DNA of 61,901 bases, counting the filler, from Hausera hauseri (lineage: Eukaryota): NCBI GenBank assembly GCA_046269625.1. It is 13 parts of 13 records of this genome, joined end to end, with 100 filler letters (N's around TTAATTAATTAA, not from the genome) between each part and the next. Parts side by side here need not be neighbours in the genome. Positions count along the whole stretch, not along the records: positions 17,982 to 22,571 come from JBJURY010514904.1; 12 more parts are not named here. One strand, given 5' to 3'. Below are positions 4,534-43,350 of this stretch, one piece after another. How positions within the stretch are numbered: the first letter of the stretch is position 1; every line of letters begins with the position of its first letter. The notes beneath the pieces were generated by a model. The model did no database searches. It was not told the origin of the DNA and saw nothing but the letters and a program-made list of their open reading frames with translations. Made by a program: the position numbers and the translations under genes.

Positions 4534-4551
4534 CCTCGTGTCTCACTGCAG

Positions 4552-4631
4552 GGAGAGTTCTGAACAGGTTCTCTAAGGACATCGGTCAGCTGGACTCCAA
4601 CCTGCCCTGGACGTTCACAGACTTCATTCAG
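4552..4631 (+). CDS. ABCC4: Single 80-bp internal exon of vertebrate (teleost-like) ABCC4/MRP4 transporter; probable host-fish DNA
   Basis: ctgcag|GG AGA GTT CTG AAC AGG...TTC ATT CAG|gtgagg encodes [27 protein letters not shown]. Codon third positions are GC-rich, unlike the rest of the window. Confidence 0.8.
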
Positions 4632-5214
4632 GTGAGGACAGATCTGAAGCTCAGGAGGGACACTGCTTCCTCTGACTACTTGGTGGTAAAACCCTGAAAC
4701 CTGGGCCTTGTAACATGATTTTATAGGTTTTCTGCTACTTTCCACTCGACTTGAAACAGCGTCTCAGAGAAGGCCTAACTTTCTCGTTAGAGCGATTTAA
4801 ATGGACCCTGTGATGTGATGTATCATTTAATCGATTGGAACAGATTTTAATCTAGTAAACCATTATTTGACAATTAATCGTAAGTCGATTAATTGTTTTC
4901 ATCCCTATTTATTATTATTAATATTAATGTGTCTCATTGATGTTGGCAGGTTTCATGTAGGCTTCTGACATTCTAATTTTAAACTTTATAAATAGTCGTT
5001 AACTGTTTTATTTGGTCAATTTTTTTCATAAGTGAATAGACGTCAAAGTTTGAGCTGTTTCAGCTTTGTTTAACACAAATAAAAATAAAGTTTTTTCCAA
5101 GATACCTGTTGATGAACGCCAAGCTTCAACAAATCTATCTAAAGATGACTCTATTGTAAAATTTTGTTTCTTTCAAGAGATTTACCAAGAGGGGTTTTTC
5201 TTAAAGAACTTTTA

Positions 5215-5280
5215 TGATACAATGAAATAGTTGTAAGTGATTTCAAGAAAAGTAATTTTTTTAAAAAGTCTTTAGGAGGT
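5215..5280 (+). promoter_or_regulatory. Bacterial extended -10 (TGnTACAAT, 5215-5223) and Shine-Dalgarno (AGGAGGT, 5274-5280) for accA
   Basis: The SD lies 6 nt upstream of ATG 5287. There is no convincing -35. Confidence 0.55.
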
Positions 5281-5286
5281 GGTGAT

Positions 5287-6234
5287 ATGGTTTTATTGGA
5301 ATTTGAAAAATCTCTAGAACCTCTGGTGAAAAAATTAGAGAACCTTAAAGAAGGGAAGAAAAAAGAAGTAGAAGAGGAAATTCGTAAGAATTTGGAAAAG
5401 ATTTATAAAGATTTAACCCCTTGGCAAAAAACTCTTATCTCTCGCCACCCGAACAGACCTTATGCTATGGACTATGTGGATAACTTATTTAAAGACGTCG
5501 TGTATCTCAGTGGAGATAGACTTGGGTATGATGATGGTTGTACGATAGGAGGTCTTGCAACGTTTCAAGGAACTCCTCTTGTTTTTGTCGGTCAACAAAA
5601 AGGAAGAAATTTAGAAGAGAATATGAAATACAATTTTGGGATGCCGAAACCAGAAGGCTATAGAAAAGCCCTGAGACTTTTTGAAATGGCAAATAACTTT
5701 GGAAAACCTATTGTTACCCTTATTGATACACCGGGAGCCTATCCGGGACTAGAGGGGGAAGAGCGATCTCAAGCAGAGGCAATAGCTAGAAATTTACGGG
5801 AGATGGCACGACTTAAGGTCCCTGTTGTTGCTATAGTTATAGGGGAAGGTGGTAGCGGAGGAGCTTTGGGAATTGCTGTAGCTAACCAAGTTTTTATGCT
5901 AGAAAACTCTATTTATTCGGTTATCTCTCCGGAGTCCTGTGCTTCTATCTTGTGGAAAGATGCAAGCAAGAAGGAAGAAGCTGCAAGACTTTTGAAAAAT
6001 GATTCTCAGACAGCTAAAAAATGGGGAATTGTAGATAAAATTATAGAAGAGGGAGTTGGTGGGGCTCACCGCAACTGGAACCTTGTGATGGATAACGTGA
6101 GTGCAGCTTTAAGTGAGTTTTTAAAAACTTTTGGAAAGCTTTCTTCTCATGAGTTGGTGGAAAATCGTATGAAAAAGTTTGCAAATATTGGTTTTGTGCA
6201 AGTAGATAAAAAAGCCCCTTCCAAGAAGATTTAG
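5287..6234 (+). CDS. accA: Bacterial acetyl-CoA carboxylase carboxyltransferase alpha subunit
   Basis: Motifs LEFEK, LTPWQ...RHPNRPY, NFGMPKPEGYRKALR, IDTPGAYPG, GEGGSGGALGI and YSVISPESCASILWKD. Full length (315 aa), intronless, with an SD. Confidence 0.97.
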   Translation: MVLLEFEKSLEPLVKKLENLKEGKKKEVEEEIRKNLEKIYKDLTPWQKTLISRHPNRPYAMDYVDNLFKDVVYLSGDRLGYDDGCTIGGLATFQGTPLVFVGQQKGRNLEENMKYNFGMPKPEGYRKALRLFEMANNFGKPIVTLIDTPGAYPGLEGEERSQAEAIARNLREMARLKVPVVAIVIGEGGSGGALGIAVANQVFMLENSIYSVISPESCASILWKDASKKEEAARLLKNDSQTAKKWGIVDKIIEEGVGGAHRNWNLVMDNVSAALSEFLKTFGKLSSHELVENRMKKFANIGFVQVDKKAPSKKI

Positions 6235-6274
6235 GATATTTATAAGTAAGTATAACAAGTAAAATGAGATACCG

Positions 6275-7210
6275 ATGAGTGAAAAAAAAGGTGAAATAAA
6301 AGAAACAGAAAAAAATGTTGCTGGAACTTTTGAGGAAGTAGTTTTTCGTTTAAAAAGCTTTTGGCGTCAAAAAGGTTGCCTTACCATAGAGCCTTATGAT
6401 ATGCCTATGGGTGCTGCAACCTTTCATCCAGAGACTTTTTTTCGTTCCTTAGGTCCTGAACCTTACCGAATGTCTTGTATACAACCTTGTCGTAGACCTA
6501 CCGACGGGCGCTATGGGGAAAATCCAAACCGCCTTCAACGTTATTACCAGTTTCAAGTTATTATCAAACCCTCTTTTGACACCATCCAACAAGATTATCT
6601 TGAAAGCCTCAAAGCTTTGGGTCTCGATATTTATAAACATGATTTACGCTTTGTTCATGATGACTGGAAGTCACCTACTTTAGGAGCATGGGGTCTTGGT
6701 TGGGAAGTGTGGTTAGACGGCATGGAAGTTAGCCAGTTCACCTATTTTCAGCAAATGGGAGGGCAGAAGTTAAGCCCCATCACCGTAGAGCTCACCTACG
6801 GACTAGAAAGACTTAGTCTTTATTTACAGAATAAAACTAGTGTGTATGAGTTGGCATATAACGAAGAACTGAGCTACGGAGACCTTTTTTTAGAAAATGA
6901 AAGGGAGCAGTCTGCCTTTAACTTTGAGCTTGCCGAGGTGGATCTCCTTTTAGAAGGCTACAAAAACGCCAAGAAACAGTTACAACTTCTTAGTGAGAAG
7001 AGACTGTATTTACCGGCTTATGATAGCCTGACGAGCTGTTCTCACTACTTTAACCTCCTCGATGCAAGAGGAATGTTATCTGTAACGGCAAGGGCTTCCT
7101 ATATACAAGACATTAATGCCCTGAGTACAGGACTTGCAAAACTTTATGTACAAGATAGAGAAAAAAAAGGCTATCCTCTCCTGAAAAAGTGGCAGGGAGC
7201 TTCCCTATGA
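6275..7210 (+). CDS. glyQ: Bacterial glycine--tRNA ligase alpha subunit
   Basis: Motifs QPCRRPTDGRYGENPNRLQRYYQFQV, SPTLGAWGLGWEVWLDGMEVSQFTYFQQ, ELTYGLERL and SHYFNLLDARG. Confidence 0.97.
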   Translation: MSEKKGEIKETEKNVAGTFEEVVFRLKSFWRQKGCLTIEPYDMPMGAATFHPETFFRSLGPEPYRMSCIQPCRRPTDGRYGENPNRLQRYYQFQVIIKPSFDTIQQDYLESLKALGLDIYKHDLRFVHDDWKSPTLGAWGLGWEVWLDGMEVSQFTYFQQMGGQKLSPITVELTYGLERLSLYLQNKTSVYELAYNEELSYGDLFLENEREQSAFNFELAEVDLLLEGYKNAKKQLQLLSEKRLYLPAYDSLTSCSHYFNLLDARGMLSVTARASYIQDINALSTGLAKLYVQDREKKGYPLLKKWQGASL

Positions 7211-7353
7211 CAGAGAACAAGGGTAAAAACTTTATCTTTGAACTGGGCTTTGAAGAGATCCCCCATGGAATCTTGGATAAACTATATGATGATTTTTCTG
7301 ATTGTATTTTGAGGAATTTACAATCTGTTGGGTTAAATGTGGTGTCTTGCTAA
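7207..7353 (+). pseudogene. glyS: 5' fragment (48 codons) of glycine--tRNA ligase beta subunit, truncated at junction with retrotransposon DNA
   Basis: The start overlaps the glyQ stop (ATGA). MTENKGKNFIFELGFEEIP matches the GlyS N-terminal (L/F)xExGxEExP motif. Confidence 0.85.
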
Positions 7354-8270
7354 AAGAAACTCGGAGAAAGAAAAGTAGTAGCTGGTAAGGAGACAATAGG
7401 AGAAAATGGAGGAATGGTAGGAGTAGGAACAGTAGGTGTAGTAGATGTGTGAACAGAAACAGGAACCGAAGAAAATGTAGTGGGAGTAGAATCGGAGGCA
7501 GAAACAGAAGGAAATATAGGAGTCAAAAAATTTGTTGAAGTTTCAATTGGAATGGTGTCATCCACGAAAAAGGCAGGTTTCACATTATTTATATAGACTG
7601 TTAGTTCTTTTCCATCTTTAAGAATTATCGCATTGTGAGAAAGTAGTTGAACTAGCTTATAAGGCCCGAGATACTGCGGTTGAAAACCACACGGTGTTTG
7701 ATTACGTAGCCAAACGAACTTAGCAGAACACAAGTCGTCAGGTAAATATGTTTTATTGTTGTGTAGTATTCTACAGAATAAGTCTTTACTGACTTCAGTG
7801 AAATGGTCCTGTGCTGCTTTGATCTTTTCGTCTGTAGGCATATTATCTAGTGCGGTTAACTCCAACAAGGAGCGAACAGGTGTTCCATATACTGCTTCGG
7901 TAGGTGAGAATCCTATGGAAGTGGAAAACGTGTTTCGCCAACTGAGCAGGACCAAAGGAAGAAGAACAGTCCAGCTACTGTTGGATTCAGAGAGAATTTT
8001 TAGCGACGTTTTCATGGTTCTGTGGAATCTCTCAATAAGACCGTTTGATTGTGAATGATAAGGATTCCCAATCTATTGACGAGTGATTTGAATAGGTTGG
8101 ACTCGAATTGAGGGCCTTGGTCCGAAATGATAAATTTAGGAGACCCGAACCTGCTGATCCAAGTGCGGTTGAAAATGTCGGCTATTGTGTCTGTGTTAGT
8201 GCTCCGTAGAGGGACAGCTTCTGGCCAACGTGAGATGCGATCCATCATTGGCAAAATGAATTGATGACTG
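7350..8270 (-). mobile_element. Ty3/gypsy integrase (core + GPY/F + Ser/Thr/Pro-rich tail), frameshifted
   Basis: Motifs MDRISRWPEAVPL, WISRFGSPKFIISDQGPQFES, SPTEAVYG and YLGPYKLV. Same family as 43451-44466. Confidence 0.9.
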
Positions 8271-8650
8271 ATTGTCAAAGTCTCGTCGAAATACACACGC
8301 AAATCTATCTTTTCCATCCGGAATCCGTTCCAAAACGTACGCTGCAGATGAACACACAACGTATCCGGTAATGGTTGTATTAACCTTGCCATTCGAACTG
8401 CTTTTTTGCTTTGGCAGTCTTTGTTATCACATTCATACCCATCAATACCATCCATTTCAAAAAACTTAGCGATAAGTGTTTGTAAATCAAGTTTTGCTAA
8501 ACAAAATTTAAACCGAAACGAAATAAAAAGCTGCATACTTCGAGATCTCCCTGAAGGAATTGGAACATGAAGTGCTAAATCACACTGCAAAGGGGACATT
8601 GTACTGCAAATATCTGAACACCGTATTTCGTACTGAATCAAAATTCTCAT
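8270..8650 (-). pseudogene. Fragment of ubiquitin-specific protease (peptidase C19, USP30-like) joined in frame to integrase
   Basis: CSDIC...CDLALHVP, IDGYECDNKDC and LPDTLCVHLQRTFW...KIDLRVYFDETL. Candidate 42-nt GT..AG intron at 8497-8538. The His box is missing. Confidence 0.7.
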
Positions 8651-9299
8651 AGGTATAGGGAATTTAAGCCATTCTTGAATGTCCTTTTTCTGAAAAAGTT
8701 ATTCACGGAATCTTTGAAATTTCACAGTTAGAGAATTAATTAAATATACTGAAAATAAAGTATATTCGCTTCAGTCACTACAAAGGAGATCTACAAGATG
8801 ACATTATTTTTTATCGGTTTATTTCAATAAACGTTAGCCATGTTTAGCAACAACGAAAGAGGTTCCATGGTATCATAGAAAACATTGGCATTTCATAATT
8901 TACTTATTTAATCAGTTTGCAAAGCTTTTATACGTTTTAAATGTTTACCTGGTGACAAGTTCATTAGTAAAAATAAGCATAGGAAAAACAACCTATATTC
9001 ATCGCCTAGTTCAATGACTTGTTGCCAACGTGTCAGAACTTCTGACTCAGAAGTGAGTGGATACCACATCTAAAAAACTCTGTATGCCATAAAGTAAAGA
9101 AAACCAAAGAGCACAGATGCACTTCACCTTCATTTCTAATTGTTTTGACGAAATTTCAAATTTCCAGAATTTCAATTCAGTCTGAAGCCAGGAAAAATCN
9201 NNNNNNNNNNNNNNNNNNNNNNNNNNNNNNNNNNNNNNNNNNNTTAATTAATTAANNNNNNNNNNNNNNNNNNNNNNNNNNNNNNNNNNNNNNNNNNNN

Positions 9300-13750: not shown

Positions 13751-16700
13751 ATTCATTTAATTCTTCGTTATCCGTACTGAAAGTGGGAATTGACATTTGG
13801 CTCAATTCTCTAATCAATTCCCTGTTATAGTCCGCTTCTTCTTGGGCTTTTCTAGGTCTGCCGACAGGGCGTTTCGGCCTTGGAGCATTGGTTACCATTT
13901 CGCTTAGTGGCACTAGATTATTGTCATATTGTTCCTTGTCTTCATCCGCCTGTAAATACTCGAAATACATCACAGCATCACGTACTCACATTGTTCCGTT
14001 TTTGCCTATTGCGTGGCTTCTTTTGTCTGTTCATTGGCTATTATTACTAATATCCGATTCGTTTCGTCGGGGATAATTCCGACGTCTATTAATTGTTCTA
14101 AATCCTCTAGTATTTTTCCTCTAAAGTAAAATCTGTAATTTAGCTCGTTTGTTCCGCCATTATTTAATTACCATTCTCTTACGTCCTTTACATAGGAATA
14201 AGTAGTTAACTCACATTCTTTCTCGTCCATCCATTCGGACGATATCATTATTTTCATCGTTACTTCCAGTTTAGCCTTCAAGATTTTCGCATATTTATCA
14301 AAAGTTTCGGTACCGCGTTGTAAATTATGTTTTCACTGTATAATTTTGTCAAAGTTGGAATGAGTTGTCTGAGCTTATTTTCAATAATATTCACATTAGC
14401 TGAGTCCAAGAGCATCTCCACATTGAATTTCCTGTTCTGTTGGTACATTTCTATTTTATTTAGGTGTACCGGAGTGACGTGATTTTATGCCGTTATTGCT
14501 TCTAAATAAGCATCCCATTCTGGTTCATTCCTATATCGGGAAATGCATAGTCTACTAGGGCTGTATTCGTTCTTTGTACATTTTCTCATATTTCTTTCAG
14601 TTTTGGTTGTATTTCTTTCATCTGTGTAGTTCGGAAACCTATTCCGTTTCCACAGGCATATTGAATCATTTTCAGTAGTTCGCCTAATTCGTTAGAATTG
14701 ATAAATCCCTTTTGGTGATAATCGGTTAGTTCAATAATTACATCTCTTTGCCATCTCTGCACAAATTCTCCTTTATTTTTAATTTCTAATTCTGTAAAAG
14801 CGTATTTGTTCCGGTAACCTTCAAACTCTTACTAGTTCATCTAGCCTCGTTGCTCTTTGTTTCGTTCTGATGCATGGCTCTTCAACTTGTATTTTGGGTA
14901 TTAATTGCTTCATCCTTTCATCATTAATCTCCGCAATTACTACAAGTAAATAGGCTAGCCCATCTCATTTATAATTTTCGAGTCGGTGTCCATTGCATCC
15001 AGCAATTTCTTTACGAAATTAGATTCTTCGACACTAAGACGTTGGTCGTTTCTTACTCTCGTCAATTCGGTGTGATAATTCTGATCCGTACCGGCTATCC
15101 ATTCTTGTGGTTTATGCAAAAATCTTACTGCTTCTGTCAGAGCTACTCTATGTCCCGGACAAATATCCAAGGTTTCGATATTCTGGATTGAAATCTCGTT
15201 GATAGATTTATCTCTTAAGTGTTGGATTCCTTCTCTTCGAAGACTTCTTAACCTTGAGTACAAATTTCAAGTCATGTTTCGCTTTTCTGTAAAGTTTGTC
15301 TCTTCAATCATTTTATATATTTCTTCTAAGATTGTCTCTTCTTGCTTCTTTATAAATTTTAACCGTCGAAGTGCTTCGAACCGTGTCCGGATATCTATTT
15401 CTGCTTGTATGGTGGTTAAGTTACGTGCACCTTCTTCTAGTTGCTTTTTACCGATGGTTCGCTTTCCGGAAATTCTTTCTTACGGTCTTCTACTAATTTA
15501 CTTAATCTGGTTATTAGTTCAGACTATTCTGATAATTGGTTGGCGATTATTGGCTTGGCTAATATTACTTTGTCTAGTATCTTAGGCATCTTTCAACTCG
15601 TCGTCTGGGCCTTTTATGAAGTTCATAAATTGACTAACATAATTGAGCTCATCCTTATATTTGTCGAGTTCTATGATACAAGCCTTTATTATATATTCGG
15701 TTTCTTTGTTATTTATGAACATAATTCGGTTTTTCAAACTATTGATCTGCGATCTTTTCTCATTCTCCATCTTAATGCGACTCTTTAAGTCCGCCCATCG
15801 TCTAGGTTCGGCAAAGGCAATTTTTTATCATCTCCGTTAAGGACGGCATATCTATCGGGTTTACACCAAATATTTCTAAATCAGTATCACTTTGATTGCT
15901 AACCGGCTTTTCTCTAAGCCGATTGATCATTACACAACGAATTTAATTCATCATACGTTCTAAATTACGGCCTACTCTCTTCAGTTTTGGGTTTGTTTCT
16001 AAAGTAGACAGTAGCGTCTGAGCTTTAGTAACCTTCACATCAATACTATCCTCGTTTTTACTCCATCCTTCCGAAAACTCGACTCCACTTTTAATCCATG
16101 ACTCTAATTCATGGTTCCACTTCATCAACGTATCTCGTGGCACCTCTTCGGGTTGTCTTAGTTCGATTGCTTCCTCGAGCTTTCCTTCACTACATAATTT
16201 TAAACTTTTGTATAATTTCTCTGTAAATTGTTGTTCCTTACCAGATGTCTTTTTCTTTACTGGTCTATTTAAGCCTTTCTAGAGTGCGTCGTAGTATCTC
16301 TGGGTCGTGACATCTAATTCTCATTCTCTTTAATTTGTTGGCGTTCTTCCATGAACGTCGGACTTCCCATTTTTTTACGTCAAGGTCATTATCATGTTCC
16401 GTTTCTTCCTCACTAGCGGGAAGCGGACAAATTTCATTGACTTCGTCCTTAATATTCATTATCTGTGGAGTTTCTAACACTTGGAATCCCTATAGGCGTA
16501 ATCGAAATATCCGAGGGCGAGTCATCTCTTAGGATAGCAGTATAGAAATCTCCTTTTTCTTTTGTATCCCTTTTAATTGGAGATCTTAAGAGTCTTGAAT
16601 TTTCTCTTGGGTGATGGGTTTCTACCTCTATTCTTGGTTATCTTAAGAACTAAAAGCTCAATAAATTCATTTTCGATCTCATCTGTTGTTTCGTCTGGTT

Positions 16701-17881
16701 TGTGTTTCTTGGATTCTGCGTCTAAATCTACATTCTGAGATGTCGTTAGTTTCTCCGATTGTGCTATTACTTGCGGAATATACTTCTTACGCGCCATATT
16801 AGTATGATTTGGTGCCAAAGCCCATTCTTCTTCGGTTTGTGGTTCTCTTCATCCATGATAAACTTCCATTAGTCGTAATTTCTTTTCATAGTCTTTTCCA
16901 GCGTTCATTACTTGAGGGTTTGTAGTTTCGCCTAGATTCCTTACATATCTGCGTAAATCTTGCATTTCAATAATTAGGCTTATATCTCCTCGTTTACCAT
17001 AGATGGCTTCTAAGTTATTTTTGATCATACTTGTTTTATTCGATACGGTAAATGTGACGCTTCTAGGATTTGGACATGATCTAGCGATGTGTCCTTCTTT
17101 TTCACATGTAAAGCATGTTAAATTCCCATTCCGGCCAACTCTTTGTCGGCCATCTTCATTTACAGGCGATTTCGCGCTGTTTGTATTCTTATTCTGGCTC
17201 TGTAGCATTTGTCTATTCTCTACGTCGTATTTATTATCCGTATATTTATTATTAGGTCGGTACCCCCTTGGTTCCTATCTGAATTGTAACTCGATTTATC
17301 ATACGAGTTATTTCGATTATTACTAAAATTTATGTCATTCTTTTGATTCCTATTGTGAACGTTTTGGTTTCTGTTATTAAAACCTCGGTTCCGGTTATAA
17401 TCGTTAAATTGTCTGTTATCTTGATTTTCATTTCTATTTTGATTATTGCGGTTATTATTCTTTTCATATTTATCACCTTGCTGGACATATCTCTCTAATG
17501 TTATTTCTAGATCTTGGGCTAATTGTAAAGTCCGTTCAAAATTATCGGTTCTAGCCAGAATTAACTGTATAACTAAATCTCTTTACCATATGCCATTTAT
17601 TAACTGAATCGTCATCATGACGTCTAAATTTGGTGGCGTTGCTTTTTCCGCAGCATCACACTCTGCATCTGTTTTAGCTTTTGCTACATTAACTATTCTT
17701 AAGGTGCTCACATAACTATTATCGATATTTTTAATGCAAACGCAAACTGGGTAAGCGATTCACCCTTTTGTTGCACTCTGTTCTAAAATGTTATAAGTTT
17801 CTGCTGTGACGTTACTGTTTGCAATATTTACGGTTTAATGCTCTTACCAGGGTGGATCAAGATTTCTTTTCGTCACTGGTA
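13751..17881 (-). mobile_element. Degenerate Ty3/gypsy gag with CCHC knuckle and very long C-terminal extension
   Basis: Capsid C-terminal motif QKGES, knuckle CFTCEKEGHIARSC and many stops. Colinear homology with 50200-53400. Confidence 0.8.
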
Positions 17882-18183
17882 NNNNNNNNNNNNNNNNNNN
17901 NNNNNNNNNNNNNNNNNNNNNNNNNTTAATTAATTAANNNNNNNNNNNNNNNNNNNNNNNNNNNNNNNNNNNNNNNNNNNNTCCCTACGCACCGGTGACA
18001 TTGAAAGGTAGTATGAAAATAACGTACAACAAGACTGTTACTAAAACCAAAACACATTCTTGTTCTCTGACACTTACTGACAATAAAATAACAGTTGGAA
18101 AATCGGGCTTTTGCACGACCAAATCAAATTAATGCATATTCAATAAGATTGGCGTTTTTATTTTAGGGGAATACTTACATTTT

Positions 18184-18934
18184 ATGGCATATTTTGAATT
18201 TACTGTTATCTTTAAGTCCTCTGAGATGGCGCAGACATTTAGATTCAAAAATACAGAGTATAAAGGTAAACATATTAAAAGTGAATATGTGGTTGGTCCA
18301 AGATTAAATCCCGTATATTACCAGACAACGGTGAAATTTACTTATACAACAGAAAGGGTGTCAACGTCATACATATTGATTGGAGACAATGTCTATTGCA
18401 AATCTGTAGCACAGCTCTGTCAACACTTTTCTTCTTCGAATCAAAAGTACAAGGCGATATTTAAAATTTTTGGGTCAGATGCAAATGGGTACATTAAATT
18501 TGAACTGACTAAGGATATTGTTGACATTTCATTGAACAAAGCTTTGGCCATGGTATTGGGTTTTGAAAAACAGCAGTTTGAGGCATCGAATAAGAAGACG
18601 GCGGCAATACATGTTAAATACACTTAAAACCAAACTAAAAACTGGTCTAAGTCAAATGTGCATTTACGTGAACGTCACCGAACCAATTTTAATCCGTGGA
18701 GTACGTGCACCGCTACTCTGTGCAATTTATCCGGAAAGCAGCAAATATACTGCTGGCAACAATGTCACTCTCAAGCTCGATAATCCAATGTACCTTCCTG
18801 TGGCATCTACATCTATAAACAATGTTGAAGTAAATATCCGATGTGACGCGAGCTACCTTATTGAATTTCCGTACGGTACCACAACCAGTCTAACTCTTAA
18901 TTTCCGTCAAATCCAACAACAACAACATGATTGA
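18184..18934 (+). pseudogene. Polinton minor capsid (penton) protein, frameshifted
   Basis: The C-terminus MCIYVNVTEPILIRGVRAPLLCAI...NPMYLPV...INNVEVNIRCD...FPYGTTTSLTLNFR matches the Maverick mCP pattern. Confidence 0.75.
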
Positions 18935-19301
18935 TTCCGAAATCGTTTCCATTTACATTACACCCCAGCAAGGCTGTGAACTGCCGTATTTCGTTGGTAA
19001 ACAGTATGACTCTGGATAGTTGCGTACATTGGCACGTTTAGCATTTCCGTCGTTGAAGCGTATCGGTGCCGTGGCAGCAAAAACAGTACAGGACGCACTA
19101 TAAGAAAACAAATTGATTTTACCATCATTTATGAAATACGCCTTGTCAGAAATAAAAAACGCTGAACCGGGACTCGTTGAATCGGTCAAAAAACAATTCG
19201 CTGGCAGTGGCTTGGGGAAACACCATAGAGCATCATCGAGCTTATTAACTATAAACAAACGTTGTCATCGTACGATTTTCGATCGATTGATTGACAAATA
19301 G
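18927..19301 (+). pseudogene. Polinton small virion core protein (QxGxG type), with stops
   Basis: MIDSEIVSIY...QQGCELPYFVGKQYDSG*LRTLARLAFP...FAGSGLGK with a basic tail. Copy 2 reads QYGFGWLRTLARLAFP. Confidence 0.6.
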
Positions 19302-19305
19302 ACAA

Positions 19306-20542
19306 ATGGTATCTGCAAAATCTGAATTGTATATATTTGTAAAAGCGGCACCACAAGTTGTTATTGACAATGCGGAATTTGAAAAAATCTGCCCGTTGAT
19401 TCGGCTTCAATGTATGATAACCTTGACACTCAATTCAACATTATGGCATCGGACAATGAATACCTGGATTTGAACGATACGCAACTCTATGTAAAAGTCA
19501 TTGTCAAAAAAGATACATTAACTGTACCCGTTGCAACAGACACTGTCTCACCGGCCAACTACTTTTTCCTCACACTGTTCCAGGAGGCTTCACTGACTCT
19601 GAACACCTTCAAAATCGAAGGCAACACCAGTTTATACATTATCAAAGCACTCACTGAAACGGCTCTGAATTACAGGATAGACAAGAAAACGACTCATTTG
19701 ACGAAAACCGTCGGATATGACGTCACTGCTGCAAACAGTCAGGCATGGGTGGCAGAATCAAAAGCACTTACAATGTATGGACCGCTGTATTTTGACTTTT
19801 TCGATCAGCCGAAATACCTACTATCCGGTGTTAAAGCCATGATTCAGCTCAAACGCAGCAACAATGTTTTTTATTTGAAAACCGCTGTTGCACAGCTTAA
19901 ACCCATATTGAAAATTACCGAGGCACGATTATACGTACGTCGAGTAAAGGTTGAACCATCTGTGCTCATGGAACTTCAATTGGGCTTGGAAACACAAAAT
20001 GCCTGTTACCCAATACAACGCACAGAACTCGTCTTTTACATCATACCAAAAGATTCAGCTACGTTTTGCAAAGATGCACTGTTTGGCGACATGCGATTGC
20101 CGAAATTTGTGCTCATTACATTTCAAGCGTCTGTTCAACAAACAGGCAGTTATATCACCGATTCGGAAACCTTTACCCATAGCAATGTAAATGACATCAG
20201 TTTGGGTAGGAATGCGGATTTCGTTGAGACATACGAGCATAATTTCAAGACCGGCGATTACGTTTACACATATATGCAATCTATCGTGCGCAACATGGGT
20301 TTGCTGAACAAAAAAGCATCAACAATGGCATATCAATGGATTTTTTCAAGTCCACCTATTTATTCTTCACATTTGTCCTGGCTCCGGACTATGACATTGA
20401 GAAGGCTTAACTACCTCAGCAGGGAAACCTGAGACTGGAAGTTCACTTTGCTAAAGCGTTGGAGAAATCAACCATCATGTACATTTACGGTGTATTTGAT
20501 GTCGAGGTTGAAATAACGAAAAAGAAAACCATCATTTTATAA
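19306..20542 (+). pseudogene. Polinton major capsid protein (double jelly-roll), frameshifted near 19400 and 20315
   Basis: Motifs AKSEL, EYLDLNDTQLYVK, PANYFFLTLF, FFDQPKYLLSGV..IQLKRS, ARLYVRRVKVEPSV, YPIQR and GNLRLEVHFAKAL. Confidence 0.85.
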
Positions 20543-20609
20543 ATAAAACTTTCTTCTTCTTCTTCTTCTTCCTCTTTGTACCATAAAGTAATTTATTACC
20601 ATTATTACT

Positions 20610-21000
20610 ATTATGATTAAATCATGTTTTAGGTTTAGCTTAACTGACCTCACTCACTATGGAAAACTCTATTGGGTGTGAAATTCCGCTCTGTACTTCC
20701 ACAGGACCGTGTGCCGCGTGACTTACGAAAAAATGGTGGTGGCGGAGGTTTCATCGTCAATACACGCAGTTCATCATTACGGGGCGAACATTAGATTACG
20801 GCGTACGTACATCCAACTGGCATCGAGGTATTCGATCCGCTAGGGTTTTATTATCCGTTATCGTTAATTTCTCAAATTTAACGGCAATAACATCATTAGC
20901 GTGTTGTATATAATCGACTTCATTATCAACATCCACTTACCGTATTGCATGGACATTACTGTCTATTGTTGCTTACATTACACACATTTTTGCGAACGTA
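20610..21000 (+). pseudogene. Adenain-family (adenovirus-type) cysteine protease, disrupted
   Basis: FRSVLPQDRVP...FIVNT...GEH*ITAY...EVFDPLG...YQHP..GHYC. Confidence 0.75.
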
Positions 21001-21333
21001 TTCCGCAATTTTGAATGGACAGACAAACAAACAGATAGACTTTTTTGTGCGGATGGACAGAGAGTGCTTGTGATGTATTGTTGTATCGTTTTATTACCTT
21101 TGTTACATTTGTGCTACACTGTCTCAGGCGTCACCTTTACTACTGATACTACTACTACTACTACTGGCATGGCAGTTTTGATTATAATCATTCTTCTTAT
21201 GAGTATTACCCAATTATGAGCTCATACTCATAGTGTGATTGAAATTTATTATTAATCGCCGTTCGGTTTTAATGGTCGTCGTCGTCGTACAAAATAAAAT
21301 TCACGACAGATTTTTACTACAAAACAAACGCAT

Positions 21334-21822
21334 TTACAAAAAACACAAAGCGAAAATAACGATTTTGACGTTTTTAACAAAATGTGTGCGTTTTTCACCC
21401 CGATCCATTGGTCTGATCGTAAGGCGGTTATAATATGAAATTTTTCCCAGCTTATCGGCAATATACCGGACCCATTTCCATCGCCGGCAGACTTGAATAG
21501 GGGGAAATTTTACCCGACGGAAATTTTCCCAACCGGTTTTCCGAATGTTCCCTTGGTCGGACGACGACGAAACCGTGTTCATTCTACTTGCCAACATCAA
21601 TACTACCTCTGTACAAAACTTCTGTATACCAACTACATGCGTTGCGTTGCCAGTTGCACATTGCCCATTTTTCTTCTTCCGCCTCCTGTGCTGCCAGGTT
21701 ACATTTTCGGCTTTTTGCCGCTGTTTACTTTTGTTCGACTTGTGCGGCTTTGCTGACCGATCTCGGACCCAAGTACATTGCTCCACTTTTTTCTTTCCCT
21801 GAGGATAGGTCTTCGACCACAA
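21334..21822 (-). CDS. Unknown small basic protein encoded in the Polinton terminal region
   Basis: 162-aa ORF. Its C-terminal half is conserved in two more copies (about 41390-41600 and 41980-42200), with several synonymous changes in this frame. Confidence 0.5.
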   Translation of the reverse strand: MWSKTYPQGKKKVEQCTWVRDRSAKPHKSNKSKQRQKAENVTWQHRRRKKKNGQCATGNATHVVGIQKFCTEVVLMLASRMNTVSSSSDQGNIRKTGWENFRRVKFPPIQVCRRWKWVRYIADKLGKISYYNRLTIRPMDRGEKRTHFVKNVKIVIFALCFL

Positions 21823-21927
21823 AATATGAAATGCTCAGAATTGCGAATAGGTGGAGAAAACTATGTTTCAGGTCCATCTGAGCACTTTTTGGAATCGGGG
21901 GTGGAGCGGACACTTCTACCTAATAAT

Positions 21928-22240
21928 CTGTTTTTGTTACATCTCTGAGGAAGCTTACGGCTTCTGTATGTGCAAGGTTTTTTGCGAATGTATTCAAAAT
22001 TTAATTCGATAGAGAAGTCTTTGATTTTTTTAAAATAACCTGTACGCATTGTTCCGATAGATAGCAGCAGTAGGCAATTATTTCTGGATCCAATCCGCAA
22101 TTGTACATTCTTTTTAGTTCATCAAAAATTTCTTTCGTAACGAATTTCCTGCTCTTTCTATGGATAATACTCTTTATGAAATTACTGGAAATAAATATAT
22201 TTTTCCTTGTTTCATACTTGGATTTCGTTATGTTCCGCAT
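21928..22240 (-). mobile_element. N-terminal HTH fragment of a probable Tc1/IS630-like transposase, interrupted by the Polinton terminus
   Basis: An HTH-like segment, RKFVTKEIFDELKRMYNCGLDPEIIAYCCYLSEQCVQVILKK, ends abruptly at 21927/21928. Confidence 0.4.
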
Positions 22241-22671
22241 TTTATAAAATTTATAAATTCGTTATTCGTTTGTGTAAAATTGCAATCTCCACATGTCCTA
22301 CTGACAAAGTTATTATTAATACAGTTTTATATATAGTTTGAATCGCCATCAATTCCTAGAATTTCTCTAAACTTTAGATGCTAACTATGGCGATCTTATT
22401 TAGTCGGGACCAAATGACAAAAATATATTATGATGTACTGATCTTAGATTGAGAGAAATATTCTCAAATGAGAATGCAACAATTTTATTCCAAAATGAAC
22501 AGGAAAGTAATATTAAATTAATTTCCTGGATATTTTATATAAATCCAATTCAGTTGTGAATGTTATCAATANNNNNNNNNNNNNNNNNNNNNNNNNNNNN
22601 NNNNNNNNNNNNNNNTTAATTAATTAANNNNNNNNNNNNNNNNNNNNNNNNNNNNNNNNNNNNNNNNNNNN

Positions 22672-25600
22672 TGTGGACCCTATTACCCGAAAACTATTAC
22701 TACCTACTGAATTTGGCTTTGCATCATGCTGCAAAAATTTCTATCCAGCCTTTAAACTTAACGACGGAAGATGGATTAAAACACACCAACCAACCACGAT
22801 GAACATACCACAGACGATTGGATTACTACCATTGGATAAAGGCATGAAGTTTAAAGTAAATAGAGAACTTCCCACCAGCGGATTATATTCATTAACATAC
22901 CTCGAAGCAGTAAGAAAACATGTATTATTTCAGAATATCCGAGAAAAAGTCATCACAGAATTTGTGTATACTGTTATAAAAGGATTACAACAGTGTATCT
23001 AATTGTGGAATGTTACTGCCAATTGATCATTTAGAGAGAACAGCTAAAAGTTCCTTTATGACTTCCGGAATAAATTCCTTAATTTTGGTCAAGTTATATC
23101 TGGAGTTTTCGGAATAATGTTATAATTACCACCATAATGGTCATATTAAGACAAATATGAGCTGCAAGAAATATAAAGAAAGTACGCGGTTGCACATGGC
23201 AAATTATGTTAGGATGTTTCGCTTCAGTGGCTCATTTAGTATTAATGTATTGGCATGCAAAGGAACTCGATAAATTAAGGAAAGAACTTTATCTAGCGCC
23301 AGAACTAGAAAAACAGTTACAAGCCTTTATTAAATTAACGGTGGAAGAATACTTGGATAATATAAATTATTGAGAATGAAATCTCGACAACACTTCGAAC
23401 CAGAAGTACAAACATTAGAAACCCGAACCTATAGATGAATTTCCGGAATACCCCGAATGCAGAGAAATGAAGGTCACATCCATGCATGATCTTCCTATGG
23501 CAAGAGATCTAGACGAATACACCTGTTTACCAAGCATTGCATACCCACCGAACGTATTCCGACAACATAATACCACAGATACTCGACGGAATAATACAAA
23601 ATTTATTTTTATGACCCAAACCACTGTTGCAACAGGAAATAGCCCTTGTGTCCGTGTACGATTTAACGGATTAAATATTATAACACTGCTAGATACCGGT
23701 GCATCAGTGTCAATGATACGACATTCATACCTAATTGACAATCAAAAAGAAGCAATCATGCCAAGTGATATAGTAATAGCAGCAGCAAATTCCACTCAAC
23801 TACAATTCCTAGGAAAAATAGACATCAAAATTAGAATCGACAGTAACTTAAACACCATAACCTTGTTTGTAGTGGATGGCAAACTATTACCAGTGCTTGT
23901 AGGAATAGTTATGGATATATTGTCTCAAAGTTCATGACTCTCGACGGATTTATCAACAAAGGCGCTTAGGTATGCACTAACTAATCTACCAATTGAAGAT
24001 ATTAGTATGACGTTAACTCATGATGTTATTATAAGACCACAACGACAAGTGATGGTGATGTTGACAATACCACCACAATACCACAAGCAACCTTGCATTT
24101 TTGAATCGAACTTATACAATAACGAAAAATATAAAATCATGCAATACCCCCTATTCATACCAAAAGGAGTACAGTGTTTATAATTTCCAATAGAAAGTTT
24201 GAACAAAAAGACAATCACATTGCGGCAAAACCTCAATTTAGGACAATTACAACCAATTAAAGTATGTGCGGCAACATTCATGATAGAAGATAAAAATATC
24301 CAATTCAAGGACGTGACTTAAGTCAATACCAAATAAAAAAATTATTACAATTATTCCGCAAATATTGAGATATTATAGTAATGAATGATAATGACATCGG
24401 TAGAACTAACGTTGTTCAACATCACATAATCACGGAAAACACCTACTCCGGATTAAACGAAATCCGTATATAATAGCTGAAGTTAAGAAGAAAGAATGTG
24501 ATAGACAAATAGCACAAATGGTTGAACACGGTATTATTAGACCAAGTTTCTCGCCATGGACATCCCCAGTAGTATTAGTGCAGAAGATAGACGGATCACA
24601 ACGATTTTGTGTAAATTGTAGAGCAGTAAATAATGTTACTAAGAGGGACAATTACCCATTACCAAAGATAGAGGAAATGCTCACAGCCTTAAGAAATTCC
24701 GCAATGTTCACCACCATAGATTTACAATGCGGATTTTGGTAAGTCGAAGTTGCTGAAGAAGATAAGCAGAAAACAGCCTTCTCTACCGGAACTGGATTAT
24801 GGGAATTTAGCGTTATGCCCTTTGGCTAGACAGGAGGACCTGCCACATTTCAAAGATGTATGAACTTTGTCTTGCAAGGAGTAACCTGTGGTATGGGGTA
24901 CATAGACGATGTAATAATATTTTCTGAAAATCTCGAACAACACTTAAAAGATTAAAACAGGCTCATTTTAAAAATCAAGTTGAAAAAATGTGAATTTGCT
25001 AAAATCACCGTCACCTTTCTCGGACACAGTTTCAAGTAAATGAATTCAACCTGATCCACGAAACGTGGAGAAAGTTAAGAAATTAAAATTATCCAAATGT
25101 CTTAAGGAATTAAAAAGACTACTAGGAATAGCTAATTACTATAGGAAATTTGTATATTACTTTGCAATTATAGTTAAATAACTAGTAGCATTAACCAAGA
25201 AAGGAACAACGTGGAACTGGGTAAAATCACACCAATGAGCATTTGAGGTACTAAAACAAGTCTTAACTTCACCACCAATACTACAATTTTGTGATCCTAA
25301 ATATCTATATATAATAATGACAGATGCCAGCGGTTATGCAATAGTAGCAGTTCAAGGACAATCTGTCCCCGACAGGCCACGTGAAGGAATAATAGCATGT
25401 CTCAGTAAAACACTGAGCGAAACGCAACACATATGGTCCATAATCGAGCCCGAATGCTATGCAATAGTATATGCATTACAATATTTTAGATACTACATAA
25501 CTAAACGAGAAATAATCCAATACACTGATCAAAACCACTGCAATAGCTAATGAAACAACGAGACACCAGTCGAAAGTTAATATAATGGGCTGTGGAAATC

Positions 25601-26680
25601 CAAGACTTAAAAATCTCAATAAAATACAGACAAGGAAAAGCAAGTGCGAATGCAGATTTCTTATCAAGACTCCAAGAGAATGATATCGATCAAGGCAATA
25701 ACGATTATATTAATCCTGATAACGATGATATGCAGGACCTAAAAGATTATTACTCACAGAAAATTTACCCAGATGTACCCAAAATAACACGACGAAAATG
25801 CACCAAGGATGCATACCAACTAATAAGTATGATTATTCAAACACTGAACAAAGATAACCAGCGAAATGCAAAACAAAATGACTATAAAGACCCGTTTGTT
25901 GAAGACATCCTATGTGAATATTACAAAATGATTGAGCTAATCCAAACCATGATAGACGAAGTAGGTAATGCAGAAGTCAACAAAGAGTTGCACATATTTC
26001 TGACCATACCATTTACGCACAAAGCCATAGGCAAATAACAAGCGAAGGACGAAGAAATTTGGAAAATTCGTAATAGCCTAAACAAAGAAAGGAGAAAAAA
26101 TAAATATAAAATGGATAGAGGAAATATCAACTATCAAGAGAGCAAAGACTTACTCATGGTTGTACGAAAACACATGCGCGCAAAACTCTTACTACACTAC
26201 CATGACGGACACCAAGGATATAAAGCCATCCTAGGCAGACTCAAGCAAAAATATTATGGGCCAAAGATGACGTGAAAGATTGATGTACAAATTGTCAAGT
26301 ATGTTCAAAAAGAAGAGGAAATTTCCAAGCGAGAAAAACACCACTAAAATCGGTATCAATTTTAGCATCACCATTTGATTGCATAGGCGCAGATGCAGCA
26401 GGACCGCTACCAACCACCGCCAGAGGAAATTCATGCGTACTTACAGCAATAGACTACCACTCAAAATTTCCAACTGCGATGCCAATGATAAATCAAACTA
26501 CGGATGTTATGGCTAGAAGACTAGTAGATGATGTAATATTTGAATACGGAGTGCAAATGACAATGATATCCGATAGAGGAAGCAATTTTTGCAGCGAACT
26601 TATGAAAAAGGTATTAGCAATATTAGGAGTTAATTACAAATTTATCTCACCTTATCATCTTTAAGTCAATGGCGTGGTGG
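22672..26680 (+). mobile_element. Degenerate Ty3/gypsy pol (PR-RT-RH-IN)
   Basis: LLDTGASVS (PR), PSFSPWTSPVVLV / DLQCGFW / YIDD (RT), TDASGYAI / ECYAIV (RNase H), SDRGSNF (IN). Many stops. Confidence 0.92.
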
Positions 26681-38750: not shown

Positions 38751-41700
38751 ATTTAAAGTTTTCGAGTCAGATGCAAATGGGTACATTAAATTTGAACTGG
38801 CTAAGGATATTGTTGACATTTCATTGGCCAAAGCTTTGGCTATGATATTGAGTTTTGAAAAACAGCGGTTTGAGACATCGACGTATACGAAGACGGCGGC
38901 GGTACATGTTGAAACACTCAAACCCAAACTGAAAACTGGACTAAGTCAAATGTACATTTACGTGAATGTCACAGAACCGATTTTGTCGGTGGAGTACGTG
39001 TACCGCTACTCCGTGCAAATTATCCAGAAAGTAGCAAGTATACTGCCGGTGATAATGTCACTGTCAAGCTCGATAATCCAATGTACCTACCTGTGGCATC
39101 TAGGTCTATAAACAATGTTGAAATGAATATCCGATGTGACGCGGGCTACATTATTGAATTGCCGTACGGTACCACAACCAGTTTAACTCTTCATTTCCGT
39201 CGAATCCAACAACAACAACAACAGCATGATTGATTCTGAAATCGTTTCCATTTAAAGTAAACCCCAGCAGGGCTGGGAACTGCCGTATTTCGTTGGTAAA
39301 CAGTATGGCTTTGGATGGTTGCGTACATTGGCACGTTTAGCATTTCCGGTGTTCAAACGTATTGGAGCCGTGGCAGCAAAAACAGCACAGGATGTACTAC
39401 ATGAAAACAAATCGATTTTACCATTATTGAAGGAACATGCCTTGCCAAAAAAAGAAGCGCTGCACCGGTAGTCGTTGAATCAGTCAGAAAATAATTCGCT
39501 GGTAGTGGCTTGAGAAAACGTGGTAGAACAGCTAGATTTTTAACTATAAACAAACGTCGTCGTCATACGATTTTCGACTACTTGACAGACAAATAGCATA
39601 TGCAAAATCTAAGTTGTCTATATTTGACAAAGCCGAGCTAAAAGGTGTCATTGACAATGCAAAATTTGAAGAAATCTACCCCGTTAATTATGTTTCAACG
39701 GACGATAATATTGACATTCATTTTAACATTATGGCGTCAGACAATGAGTATTTCAATTTGAATGACTCGCTACAGTATGTAAAAATCATTGTTAAAAGGA
39801 TTCACCAACGGTTCTTGCTGCAACAGACAGTGTCACACAGAGTCAAAGTTGAAGGCAATACCAACATGTATAGTATCAAAGCTGTCATTGAAACGGATCT
39901 GAATTACAGTGCAGATACGAAAACGACTCATGTGACGAAAACCATCGGATATGACACAGCAAATCGTCAAGCATGGGTGACAGAATACAAAGTGTTTAAA
40001 TGTGTGGACCGCTGTACATTGAATTTTTCGATCAGCCGAAATACCTACTCTCCGGTGTTAAAGCTCAGATTCGACTCAAACGCAGCGAAAATGTCTTTTG
40101 CCTGAAAACTGCAGTTGCAAGTCTTAAATCCATACTGAAAATTACCGAGGCACCTTTGTTCGTACGTCGTGTAAAGGTAGAACAATCTGTGCTCATGAGA
40201 CATCGATTGGGTTTGGAAACACAAAATGCCTGTTACCCATTACAACACAGAGAACTCGTATTTTACACGATACCCAAAGGTTCAACTGCGTTTTACAAAG
40301 GTGCACTGTTCAGCGACATGCGATTGCCGAAATTTGTGCTTGTTACATTTCAAATGACTGTTCAACAAACGGGCAGTTATACCCATAGCAATGTGAATTA
40401 CATAAGTTTGGATAATAATGCGGATTTCGTTGAGATATACCAGCAAGATTTCAAGACTGGCGATTATGTTTGCACGTATATTCAATCTATCGTGCGTAAC
40501 ATGAGTTTTCTGAACAAAAATGTCAACAATGGCATATGGATAGATTTGTTCAAGTGAACCTGTCCATTTCTCACCTTTGTCCTGGCTCCGGAAAATGATG
40601 TTGAATAGACTCAAATATCTCAGCAAGGAGGCCTAAGACTGGAGGTTCACTGTGCTAAAGCGTTGGAGCAGTCTACCATGAAGTACATTTACGGTGTATT
40701 TGATGCCGAGGTTGAAATAACGAAAAACGGAACCGTCATTGTATAAATAAAATCCGCTGTGTCTCACCGTCGTACTATGAAGTAATTTATTACTATTACT
40801 ATTATACTTCAATCACATTTTTCACATTTGGCTCCACCGAGCTCAGTCACTACCGAAAATTTCTCTTGGGCGTAAAATTTCGTGGCGTGTTTCCACTGGA
40901 CCGTGTGCCGCATTATTTACGACAAACTGGCGGCTTTATTGTGAATACATAAACTTCGTCGTTTCCGGGTGAACACTGGATTGCTGTTTACGACCAACAT
41001 CGTGAGTGTATTTTACTATACGTCATCGTTCGTTTCTCAAATTGAACGGCAATCATCATCATACCGTGTTGAATATAATCAAGTTCATTATCAACATCCA
41101 ATGATTATACTATGTGGACATTACTGCTTATTGTGGCTAACATTAAAATCACTTATGAAATATGCATCATTTTATTGCTGTTGTTTTGTGTACCAAAGAG
41201 CGAACAAATCATGAGAAATAATATAATATGACACAATCATTCTTCTTGTGAGTTGTAGTACTCAATTATGAGTTCGTCGTACAAAATAAAATTCACACGA
41301 CTTTTTACAAAACAAACGAACGAACGCATTTACAACGATGACGACGATGATGATGATGATTTTGATTTTTTAACAATGTGTTTTTTCGTTGAAATTTTCA
41401 CTGGGATCCATTGATCTGATCGTGAGGCGGCTATAATAGGAAATGCTCAATTACGTGCTCAACCCATTTCCACAACCAGCAGACTTAAACAATGTGAAAT
41501 TTTTAGATTTTGAAATTTCCCATCAATTTTTCACCATGTTACTATGGTCAGACAACGTTGAAATTGTGCGCATTCGATTTCCCGACATTGATTTGACATT
41601 TGCACCAAACATTGCGCAATTCGTAACTCGTCTCGTTTCTCATAAAACATTTACTGTTTTGCTTCTTTTGTTTCTATCGCCGCCAGTAATATTTTCGACT

Positions 41701-42484
41701 CTCGCTGCGCTAGAAAATTTTTCTCGCCTTGTCCAGCTCTACCAATTTCCGCCGGTGACATGTGCGACATGTGACAAGTGCTTCCGGCTGGGTGGATCTC
41801 CGACCACAAAACACGAAATGCTTAGAATTGCGAGATAGGTGGAGAAAACTGGTTTCAAGCTCGATGTGAGCACTTTTTGGGAAGTGGTTAGGAGAAGACA
41901 CTTTTACCTACTATGATGGTTTTGACTTTTACATAGCGCTTTTTTGTTTCGTTCGTTCGTTCGTTTGTTTGATTGCATTTTTCATCCCGATCCATTGGTC
42001 TGATTGTGAGGCGGCTATAATATGAATTTTTCCCAAGCTTATGAGCAATATATTAGGCCCATTTCCATCACCGGCAGACTTGAACATTGGGAAATTTTAC
42101 CCATTTGAAATTTTCCTATAGATTTTTCCTCATGTTCCCATTGTCTGACCGACTTGCAACAGTGTCCATTGCAATCGCCAATATCGATTTACCCCTTATA
42201 CACATTTTCTCAGTGCTAGCAACATGTTTTGTATTACACGTGGAATATTTCCTGTTTTGCTTCTTCCTCTTTTAGCACCTCTACCTTACATTTCTGTAAG
42301 CCGCACCTCCGTTTACTTTTGCTCACCTCATCACACGCTATCGATATCACCTGGTCCGAACCTCTTTACTCGACCTCATTTTCTAGGAGGGGGTCGTGAG
42401 AAAATTTTAGTGAAATAGGTGGGGAAAACTGGTCGGCGGACCAATCAGAGAAGTGCGGTGGAGAGCTCATTTCTACCTACTAAT
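38751..42484 (+). mobile_element. Polinton/Maverick-like element copy 2: penton 3' (38751-39230), core protein (39226-39596), MCP (39600-40746), adenain protease (about 40780-41150), two tandem terminal regions
   Basis: Nucleotide-level colinearity with copy 1. The protease keeps GEHWIAVY and QHP...CGHYC. Ends TTCTACCTACTAAT at 42484. Confidence 0.85.
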
Positions 42485-42558
42485 GACTGTACAACAATAT
42501 GCTAATAATGCGTTCCAATTGCGATATTACATTTTGTTTTAGACTTTTATAAATAATA

Positions 42559-42887
42559 TTCCCTCTGTCCCATAACAATAGTAGCAAATGAATATTTTAA
42601 AGGAAAACTATTGGCCATTGCAGTTTTAACGCAAAATGACGAAGTCTTCAATCAAAATCATTTGTTTTGAAACATGTCAATTTGTAGTTGACTAATAATC
42701 AGTACGAATTATAACGATTTTCAAATTTCACCCTAACCCGTCAAAATTATAACATTTATATTCCTCATGTGCTACTATTATTCTAATGTAAGATGATGTC
42801 TTTTTGAGGACAATAATGTTTCGAATTTTTGAAGCTGATATTAAGATCTTAGTCAGAGTACTATAACGAATTATGGGGCAGAGACAG
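42559..42887. mobile_element. Tc1/mariner-type MITE (Stowaway-like TIRs, TA target duplication)
   Basis: TA|TTCCCTCTGTCCCATAA ... TTATGGGGCAGAGACAG|TA. Confidence 0.7.
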
Positions 42888-42918
42888 TATTATATATTAA
42901 CATCATGAATTATTTCAG

Positions 42919-43350
42919 ATATGGCTACGAGTATTTGGGTAATACAGGACGTTTGGTCATAACTCCATTAACAGATCGATGCTATCGAACATTGTTCGGT
43001 GCACTTCATTTACATCTCGGAGGTGCTCCTGAAGGACCTGCTGGAACAGGTAAAACCGAAACAACAAAGGATCTTGCTAAAGCTGTTGCTAAACAGTGCG
43101 TTGTATTTAATTGTTCGGACGGTCTTGATTACATTGCTTTGGGAAAATTTTTTAAAGTACATTTTACCATGATGATAAAGCCTTTTAAACATATGTGGGT
43201 TGTAGGGTTTGGCTTCTTGTGGAGCTTGGTCTTGCTTTGATGAATTCAATCGAATTGATCTAGAAGTGTTATCTGTGGTAGCACAGCAAATATTGACTAT
43301 CCAAAGAGCTATTGGAGCTCAACAGGAAACGTTAGAATTCGAGGGAACAC
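42919..43350 (+). CDS. Axonemal dynein heavy chain (DNAH7-like) AAA1 exons 42919-43156 and 43206-43350
   Basis: [20 protein letters not shown]-loop [10 protein letters not shown] and [21 protein letters not shown] 49-nt GT-AG intron at 43157-43205 restores FFK|GLASCG. Confidence 0.93.

Follow-up and report, generated by a model that had tools for sequence, protein, structure and literature searches.

The window analysed here, a stretch of 61,901 nucleotides from the Hausera hauseri assembly GCA_046269625.1, consists of 13 contigs without linkage that are strung together by N linkers. Two of these contigs, at positions 17982-22571 (copy 1) and 38751-43350 (copy 2), carry the remains of a Maverick/Polinton element in which penton, core, major capsid protein (MCP) and protease genes follow one another in the same order on the + strand (Table 1). 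A sequence-only reading had proposed this shared order, and it was recovered on both copies by tblastn, with E-values from 1e-12 to 1e-96, using as queries the genes of two unbroken metagenome relatives (L179 and L174) and of a second family within the same assembly (L058). On sequence similarity, this support exceeds chance by far. As also proposed, the copies are alignable as DNA, at 78.3% over 2536 columns (18459-20980 against 38751-41145) and at 66% further along (21282-21936 against 41274-41924; both by blastn), and their lesions lie at different places. All four genes are broken in both copies, neither of which is able to make intact capsid proteins any longer. The virion module had been called complete, but on these contigs it is incomplete because the contig edge removes the start of both pentons. 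The element's protein-primed polymerase B (pPolB), ATPase and integrase were not found on either contig, in agreement with the reading, and the end of copy 1, placed there at 21927, is corrected to the element's own terminus at 21924.

Table 1. Features of the two element copies and of the adjoining host sequence, in window positions.
Feature	Position	Strand	State and support
Copy 1 penton (PX, minor capsid)	17982..18934	+	start lost at contig edge; 2 frames; relatives' pentons, tblastn E 6e-22 to 2e-17
Copy 1 small basic core-type gene (PZ-like)	18927..19301	+	in-frame stops; 39% to same-position L179 gene, E 3e-20
Copy 1 double jelly-roll MCP (modelled)	19306..20542	+	3 frame pieces; longest open stretch 19383-20432
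Copy 1 adenain-like cysteine protease (putative)	20648..20980	+	in-frame stops; 45% to second-family protease, E 1e-22
Copy 1 right terminal inverted repeat	21260..21924	+	ends CTACCTAAT; family end CTACCTACT
Copy 2 penton, last part only	38751..39233	+	2 frames; E 2e-22
Copy 2 core-type (PZ-like) gene, broken	39226..39501	+	51% to L179 gene, E 4e-26
Copy 2 MCP	39593..40746	+	2 frame pieces, stops, internal gap
Copy 2 protease	40821..41139	+	2 frame pieces; E 2e-19
Copy 2 right terminal inverted repeat	41274..41912	+	repeat alignment and shared ends
Partial second terminal repeat, in tandem after copy 2	41913..42481	+	ends CTACCTACT; same arrangement after 6 of 35 ends
Host dynein heavy-chain exons with ~50-base intron, flanking copy 2, outside the element	42845..43350	+	AAA_6 E 2e-39

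Pfam, run on 17 element frames of the window, returned nothing but one sub-threshold match to DUF4978. Because it names none of the four genes, their identity was tested by fold and homology, with fold and placement both assessed on natural frames. At E<=0.001, 60 relatives were found for the longest open MCP stretch of copy 1 (349 residues); the closest of them is 78% identical to it, and most fall at 43-49%. Folded with 51 relatives in AlphaFold, it gave a model with pLDDT 83.9 and pTM 0.82, which Foldseek matched to the double jelly-roll capsid proteins of iridovirus, PBCV-1 and mavirus. Among predicted viral structures, the best match was R9XLG5 of Cotesia sesamiae Mombasa bracovirus (E 9.5e-21, sequence identity 18%), a protein which we take to be part of a Maverick insertion. 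As modelled, the capsid frame is a double jelly-roll fold, which is the outcome that the sequence-only reading had asked of structure prediction. Sequence searches of the PDB with the MCP profile and with a protease gave 0 matches, and scans of IMG/VR confirmed no relative. ESM Atlas returned clusters at 0.96-0.97, and in one of them 14% of the members carry PF21738; as recognition was low, these clusters are treated as a lead only.

The last part of the window penton has 404 relatives at E<=0.001. The L174 penton, 40-52% alike to this part, folds at pLDDT 93.9, and its model matches mavirus (E 1.6e-7), Sputnik and the adenovirus penton base. This fold is that of the relative and not of the broken window gene, and through it the model indicates a single jelly-roll penton near the MCP, as in Mavericks. 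The protease is 44-45% alike to that of the second family, and a sister-copy protease gives a weak match to Peptidase_C5 that stays under the cut-off (E 0.024). His, Asp, Gln and Cys motifs occur in the sister-copy proteases, a set that we take to be adenain-like, and together these features argue for the adenain-like cysteine protease of Polintons and Mavericks. Between penton and MCP, the small basic gene resembles its positional counterpart in L179 (39-51% alike); given its position and motifs it is presumably the core (PZ) gene. With the MCP modelled as a double jelly-roll and the L174 penton matching those of mavirus and adenovirus, the earlier assignment to a Polinton/Maverick-type virion module stands.

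Both copies run into a non-coding stretch that ends in CTACCTA(C/A)T. Maverick ends carry the motif AG...CT. With at most two mismatches, the end motif is found in 37 of the 38 rows that reach the terminus, three of which are copy 1 itself, so that 35 distinct ends are represented. Flanks are unrelated at 29 of these ends, and the other six, copy 2 included, continue into a second partial repeat. Twenty-one rows have enough inner sequence to be followed inwards, most to the protease side, two to a polymerase-arm gene and one into a polymerase. The two arms share a repeat of 667-883 columns at 80-89% (667 columns at 80.5% in one pair). A shared terminus on both arms with unrelated flanks marks this stretch as a terminal inverted repeat of 0.67-0.88 kb, as is characteristic of Mavericks, at many independent insertion sites. 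Decayed genes and the 29 unrelated flanks also bear out the description of the element as an endogenous virus.

Far more of this family is present than the two copies of the window. The 869-Mb assembly was searched with four element parts, 40 candidates being scored for each, and the first-look candidates (3423, 4123, 3899 and 1898 for the four parts) are not copy numbers, though they point to thousands of copies in the assembly. First-look candidates likewise numbered 7815 for the pPolB profile PF03175 (91 scored, 93 matches) and 1995 for TBP. Scored capsid copies are 85-91% alike to copy 1. The notion of a rare, two-copy endogenous virus was accordingly abandoned, as thousands of candidate places (1898-4123 per element part) match the family.

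Sister contigs supply the genes that the window lacks, as a search of the assembly for pPolB, rve integrase and ATPase found all three there. Upstream of the window penton and on the same strand, they carry an ATPase gene, a pair of small genes of which one has a pX-like tail, an rve integrase (E 1.6e-10 and 6.6e-10) and a first penton-like gene. On the opposite strand are a TBP-like gene (E 8.6e-11), a dUTPase (E 5.7e-26), then a gene that we take to be exonuclease-like, and a polymerase. As in Mavericks, the integrase sits upstream of the pentons on contigs that also hold the capsid module. The family ATPase has a Walker A frame and a weak Pox_A32 match (E 0.007-0.01), and it is 54-61% alike to the L179 ATPase, for which Pox_A32 reaches E 4.8e-6; each of the 24 ATPase loci matches this one gene block. 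These matches point to the packaging ATPase of Polintons. The PF03175 polymerase, tied to the family by shared dUTPase, ATPase and terminal-repeat stretches that are overlap links only, is the probable pPolB. Pfam did not list PF03175 for two long polymerase frames, and both match it in the contig profile search. Five polymerase frames that were compared are 30-56% alike. Deleted forms also occur, with the polymerase beside the ATPase, the TBP-like gene or a terminus, and in the second capsid family (53% alike) the genes run MCP, protease, exonuclease-like gene, polymerase.

Given integrase, ATPase, polymerase, second penton, dUTPase and TBP-like gene on sister contigs, the family therefore appears to be an ordinary integrating Maverick/Polinton. 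Its layout would run from the left repeat through a gene, pPolB, an opposite-strand accessory block (exonuclease-like gene, dUTPase, TBP-like gene), ATPase, two small genes, integrase, two pentons, core, MCP and protease to the right repeat. Summed overlaps give a length of ~17-18 kb, with no single contig spanning the element, compared with the Maverick range of 13-25 kb.

The copies are broken, and their coding sequences nevertheless retain a mark of constraint. In the tree of the 24 capsid copies branching is star-like (terminal branches average 0.068 and internal ones 0.006), and a stop or frame break is found in 21 of 23. A purely neutral history leads to a ratio of nonsynonymous to synonymous substitution rates (dN/dS) near 1. 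Under a codon model with low-coverage loci removed, and with first-pass values only for four genes, dN/dS was 0.53 for MCP (23 of 23 loci), 0.54 for ATPase (24 of 24), 0.54-0.59 for core (21 of 23), 0.66-0.69 for protease (21 of 52), 0.69 for integrase (18 of 31) and 0.36 for pPolB (6 of 7). For the TBP-like gene it was 0.88-0.92 (20-22 of 24). The ratio of second-position to fourfold-site divergence was 0.52 for MCP (95% confidence interval 0.43-0.64) and 0.85-0.97, with intervals that include 1, for the TBP-like gene. Outside CpG contexts the two MCP values were 0.080 and 0.156. Part of the divergence among copies may thus date from active progenitors in which selection acted on the capsid genes, and the rest from the time after insertion; the same argument has been made for reinfection by fish Mavericks (PMC8097293; the literature cited here was available in part, and statements resting on it hold for those parts). 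Selection on the capsid genes suggests that the family likely spread as particles before it decayed.

Both stretches are, in our view, probably the right termini, now broken, of a Maverick/Polinton family with matches on thousands of contigs, likely those of a triclad. This family likely multiplied while it still depended on its capsid genes, after which its copies decayed at their insertion sites. By analogy with the known family, pPolB would replicate a linear copy from its ends, and the ATPase would load it into a double jelly-roll capsid whose vertices carry pentons. The protease would mature this capsid, the rve integrase would insert the copy at a new site, and inserted copies would then mutate without constraint. 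The window's own two copies are ordinary fossils of a very abundant family.

Several points weigh against this reading. Neither particles nor RNA nor free linear DNA were seen. Outside CpG contexts the TBP-like gene gave 0.108 at second positions against 0.154 at fourfold sites, and this shift makes it an imperfect control. Age and dN/dS come from a biased sample because the copies analysed are the best DNA matches (for MCP, 23 of 3423 candidates), and a dN/dS below 1 also fits several invading lineages followed by intracellular copying. Two polymerase types, ~53% alike, are joined by the dUTPase arm in opposite orientation. Single polymerase or arm links are weak because the assembly has chimeric contigs, and since no contig spans the element, its length, its polymerase link and the target-site duplication, ~6 bp in Mavericks, all lean on overlaps. 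The tie between element and flatworm is indirect.

The strongest competitor is that the same element multiplied inside cells as a transposon, its capsid genes being passengers whose low dN/dS was inherited from diverse earlier founders. We regard this as possible but doubtful. The values of 0.5-0.7 are indeed far above the ~0.001 of cyprinid Mavericks (PMC8097293), a star tree cannot tell founder diversity from continuing selection, and deleted forms of the element exist. Passenger genes would nonetheless have to explain why constraint on capsid, core and protease equals that on integrase and ATPase, and why the TBP-like gene is near neutral although it comes from the same loci as the ATPase. 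Moreover, thousands of copies from many selected founders would itself amount to a reinfection-like history.

The identity of the host bears on the remaining alternatives, and the assembly is mixed. It holds 15 COX1 matches, including full genes that we take to be fish-like (one), snail-like (two) and arthropod-like (three), and a search for 18S ribosomal RNA (rRNA) gave 11 matches without organism assignment. A 14-kb mitogenome in the assembly reads AAA as asparagine, and L042, a decayed copy of this mitogenome, is 87% alike to it. The nearest named COX1 to that of L042 is Bdellocephala punctata at 78%, followed by Obama, Bipalium, Vorticeros and Arthurdendyus; apart from Vorticeros these are triclads, which we take to be free-living. 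Among the 120 COX1 matches listed, none bears the name of a fluke, tapeworm or monogenean. Eleven sequences match part of the mitogenome, five of them decayed copies at 78-89%. Run X1, which is not independent as it may be the source data, has the flatworm mitogenome with zero differences in long pieces. In the same run, 97 of 119 records on the mitogenome are <95% alike to it, the listed pieces having a depth of 4.6-5.0, and a piece identical to copy 1 has a depth of 7.5, near that of these mitochondrial-like nuclear pieces. The summed MCP depth in X1, 2.2-4.8e5 over 30,271 records, is no copy number. Only one of 49 assembly matches to fish exportin-2 is vertebrate-like (one exon), and the exportin-2 gene of the window is divergent yet whole.

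COX1, the decayed mitogenome copies, the similar depths, the whole divergent exportin-2 and the sparse fish DNA make it likely that the dominant nuclear genome is that of a triclad. The host is thus likely a free-living triclad planarian and its prey the likely source of the other mitochondria, a small share of fish, snail and arthropod DNA being mixed in. These host tests also weigh against a fish Maverick, a candidate that was rejected. Separately, the flatworm mitogenome of L054 and L055 (G000:C722101) is nearly complete, and its cob lies between nad5 and cox3, which departs from the usual triclad order.

The sequence-only reading had placed the element in a probable parasitic flatworm of fish; COX1, exportin-2 and the mitogenome copies uphold flatworm over fish, but the nearest COX1 sequences speak against a parasite, with a parasitic triclad relative formally possible. 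That the host is a parasitic flatworm, or some other divergent animal, rather than a free-living triclad seems unlikely to us. Fish-like mitochondrial and nuclear DNA in the assembly, a window exportin-2 only ~40% alike to any named animal, and a best named COX1 of only 78% in a database that may lack parasitic triclad relatives would fit it. Four free-living triclads and Vorticeros as the best five named COX1 matches, the absence of parasitic groups among those listed, and snail- and arthropod-like COX1 that presumably reflect the gut contents of a predator do not. A free active virus in the sample, or fish or other prey as the source, might be entertained for a mixed sample with very high summed capsid-gene depth in X1, but it is highly improbable and already largely refuted for the window's two copies by the stops or frame breaks in 21 of 23 capsid copies, the 29 unrelated flanks, the unremarkable depth of the copy 1 piece and sparse fish nuclear DNA, vertebrate Mavericks having a median of 8 copies (PMC8097293).

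Beyond the assembly, relatives of the MCP are encoded at 78 loci from metagenomes. Twenty-nine are at least 3.5 kb long, of which 15 have the penton-core-MCP-protease order and three have tandem pentons before the core. In a tree of 73 MCP rows, built by a quick method without named reference sequences, the window rows fall inside a 55-row clade with support 100. L174 and L179 resemble the planarian family in MCP (46-50% identical), polymerase (42-49% alike) and the order TBP, ATPase, pX-like gene, integrase, penton(s), core, MCP, protease. Unlike the family, they have mostly open frames, the TBP gene on the ATPase strand, and a polymerase downstream of and convergent with the protease. L179 also encodes a ubiquitin-conjugating enzyme at 222-719 (UQ_con E 1.6e-12), and a related Maverick, L059, has RING (E 2.8e-8) and MATH (E 3.4e-30) genes at 1227-2335, between dUTPase and polymerase.

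A TBP-like gene occurs in 13 of the 78 metagenome loci (two of these with Pfam E-values of 5e-18 and 2e-17), so that TBP as a feature unique to this family was rejected; the gene points to a widespread clade of relatives. L164 and L169 (G000) are TBP-like genes of another repeat family, 48-50% alike to that of L179 and without DNA similarity to this family's.

Capsid-encoding Polintons (PMC4028283) have the same gene set; the planarian family differs from them in two tandem pentons, a TBP-like gene, a dUTPase and thousands of decayed copies. With the adintovirus hybrids that combine a Beta (Terrapene-class) virion with an Alpha polymerase (PMC8502044), it shares the PF03175 polymerase. In the virion module the two also have in common a small gene whose tail resembles pX and another small gene, amphipathic and of core type, the likeness to GasderminX and Cupiennin being by description and not by alignment. 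No PLA2 gene was seen in the family, a further likeness to those hybrids. Pfam, the only method applied here, found no OTU domain, which adintoviruses carry at the polymerase N-terminus, on three long polymerase frames. In the accessible part of PMC8502044, the TBP label appears only in a figure legend of the section on non-animal datasets, and the available part of its supplement contains no flatworm terms. Polymerase exchange between Polintons has been described (10.1101/2023.08.22.554363).

The host group was said to be poorly sampled, which is overstated. An expansion of Mavericks is described for Dugesia (10.64898/2025.12.11.693146), piRNAs target the Polintons of Schmidtea mediterranea (PMC8532177), and Orthopolintovirales insertions are reported from Rhabditophora flatworms (10.1101/2025.04.19.649669). 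The Dugesia and Schmidtea elements share the planarian host group and genome expansion with our family; in the available parts they are treated as repeat classes without gene content or selection, and the likeness is by description only. The accessible parts of PMC6431247 and PMC11071308 hold nothing specific to this element, and a search for transposable-element literature on Dendrocoelidae gave telomerase papers only. No description of a TBP-carrying animal Maverick clade was found in a limited search of the literature, though Repbase or bioRxiv supplements may already have one.

Tentatively, and with the odds against it, one may go further and suppose that TBP-carrying Mavericks form a clade not yet described, and that a single lineage within it colonised the planarian genome thousands of times by way of virions, its TBP-like gene losing constraint and its polymerase being swapped. 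If so, planarians would be a tractable place to seek the still-unseen particle of an animal Maverick, as no virion of these elements has been seen so far (PMC8097293). A family with thousands of copies and a capsid as constrained as its integrase would be an invertebrate case for the reinfection argument made in fish, and it may account for part of planarian genome growth. Selection on the capsid genes and the TBP-carrying clade are the most worthwhile aspects of the family.

Other contents of the window and assembly are more varied. The contig at window 4534-9199 starts with an ABC-transporter exon, presumably vertebrate-like, and continues with bacterial accA (5218-6234) and glyQ (6263-7210) and an rve retroelement (7350-8698); it is likely chimeric. 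The AT-rich contigs L043 and L044 hold bacterial COX1 pieces, L047 (G000:C2) has an 18S rRNA match across 3297 bases, far above the usual length, and L049 (G000:C12), >100 kb, has a bacterial-looking small-subunit rRNA match, so that a bacterial genome is likely in the sample. Decayed pieces of long terminal repeat (LTR) retrotransposons (gag-like, protease, reverse transcriptase, integrase-like) lie at 14955-17849, 22672-26680, 43451-44466 and 53004-57729, and the LTR piece at 17487-17849 is 72% alike to 53070-53434. Divergent host genes at 838-2886, 35144-36337 and 37842-38363 encode a DDHD/WWE phospholipase, BOP1 and a WD40 piece. The exportin-2 (CSE1) gene at 58282-61149 is intronless and ~40% alike to named animals. 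The assembly has 110 further Cse1 matches, and the four that were examined are ~90% alike to window 59138-60049; a fragment of the host gene has apparently been amplified by some carrier.

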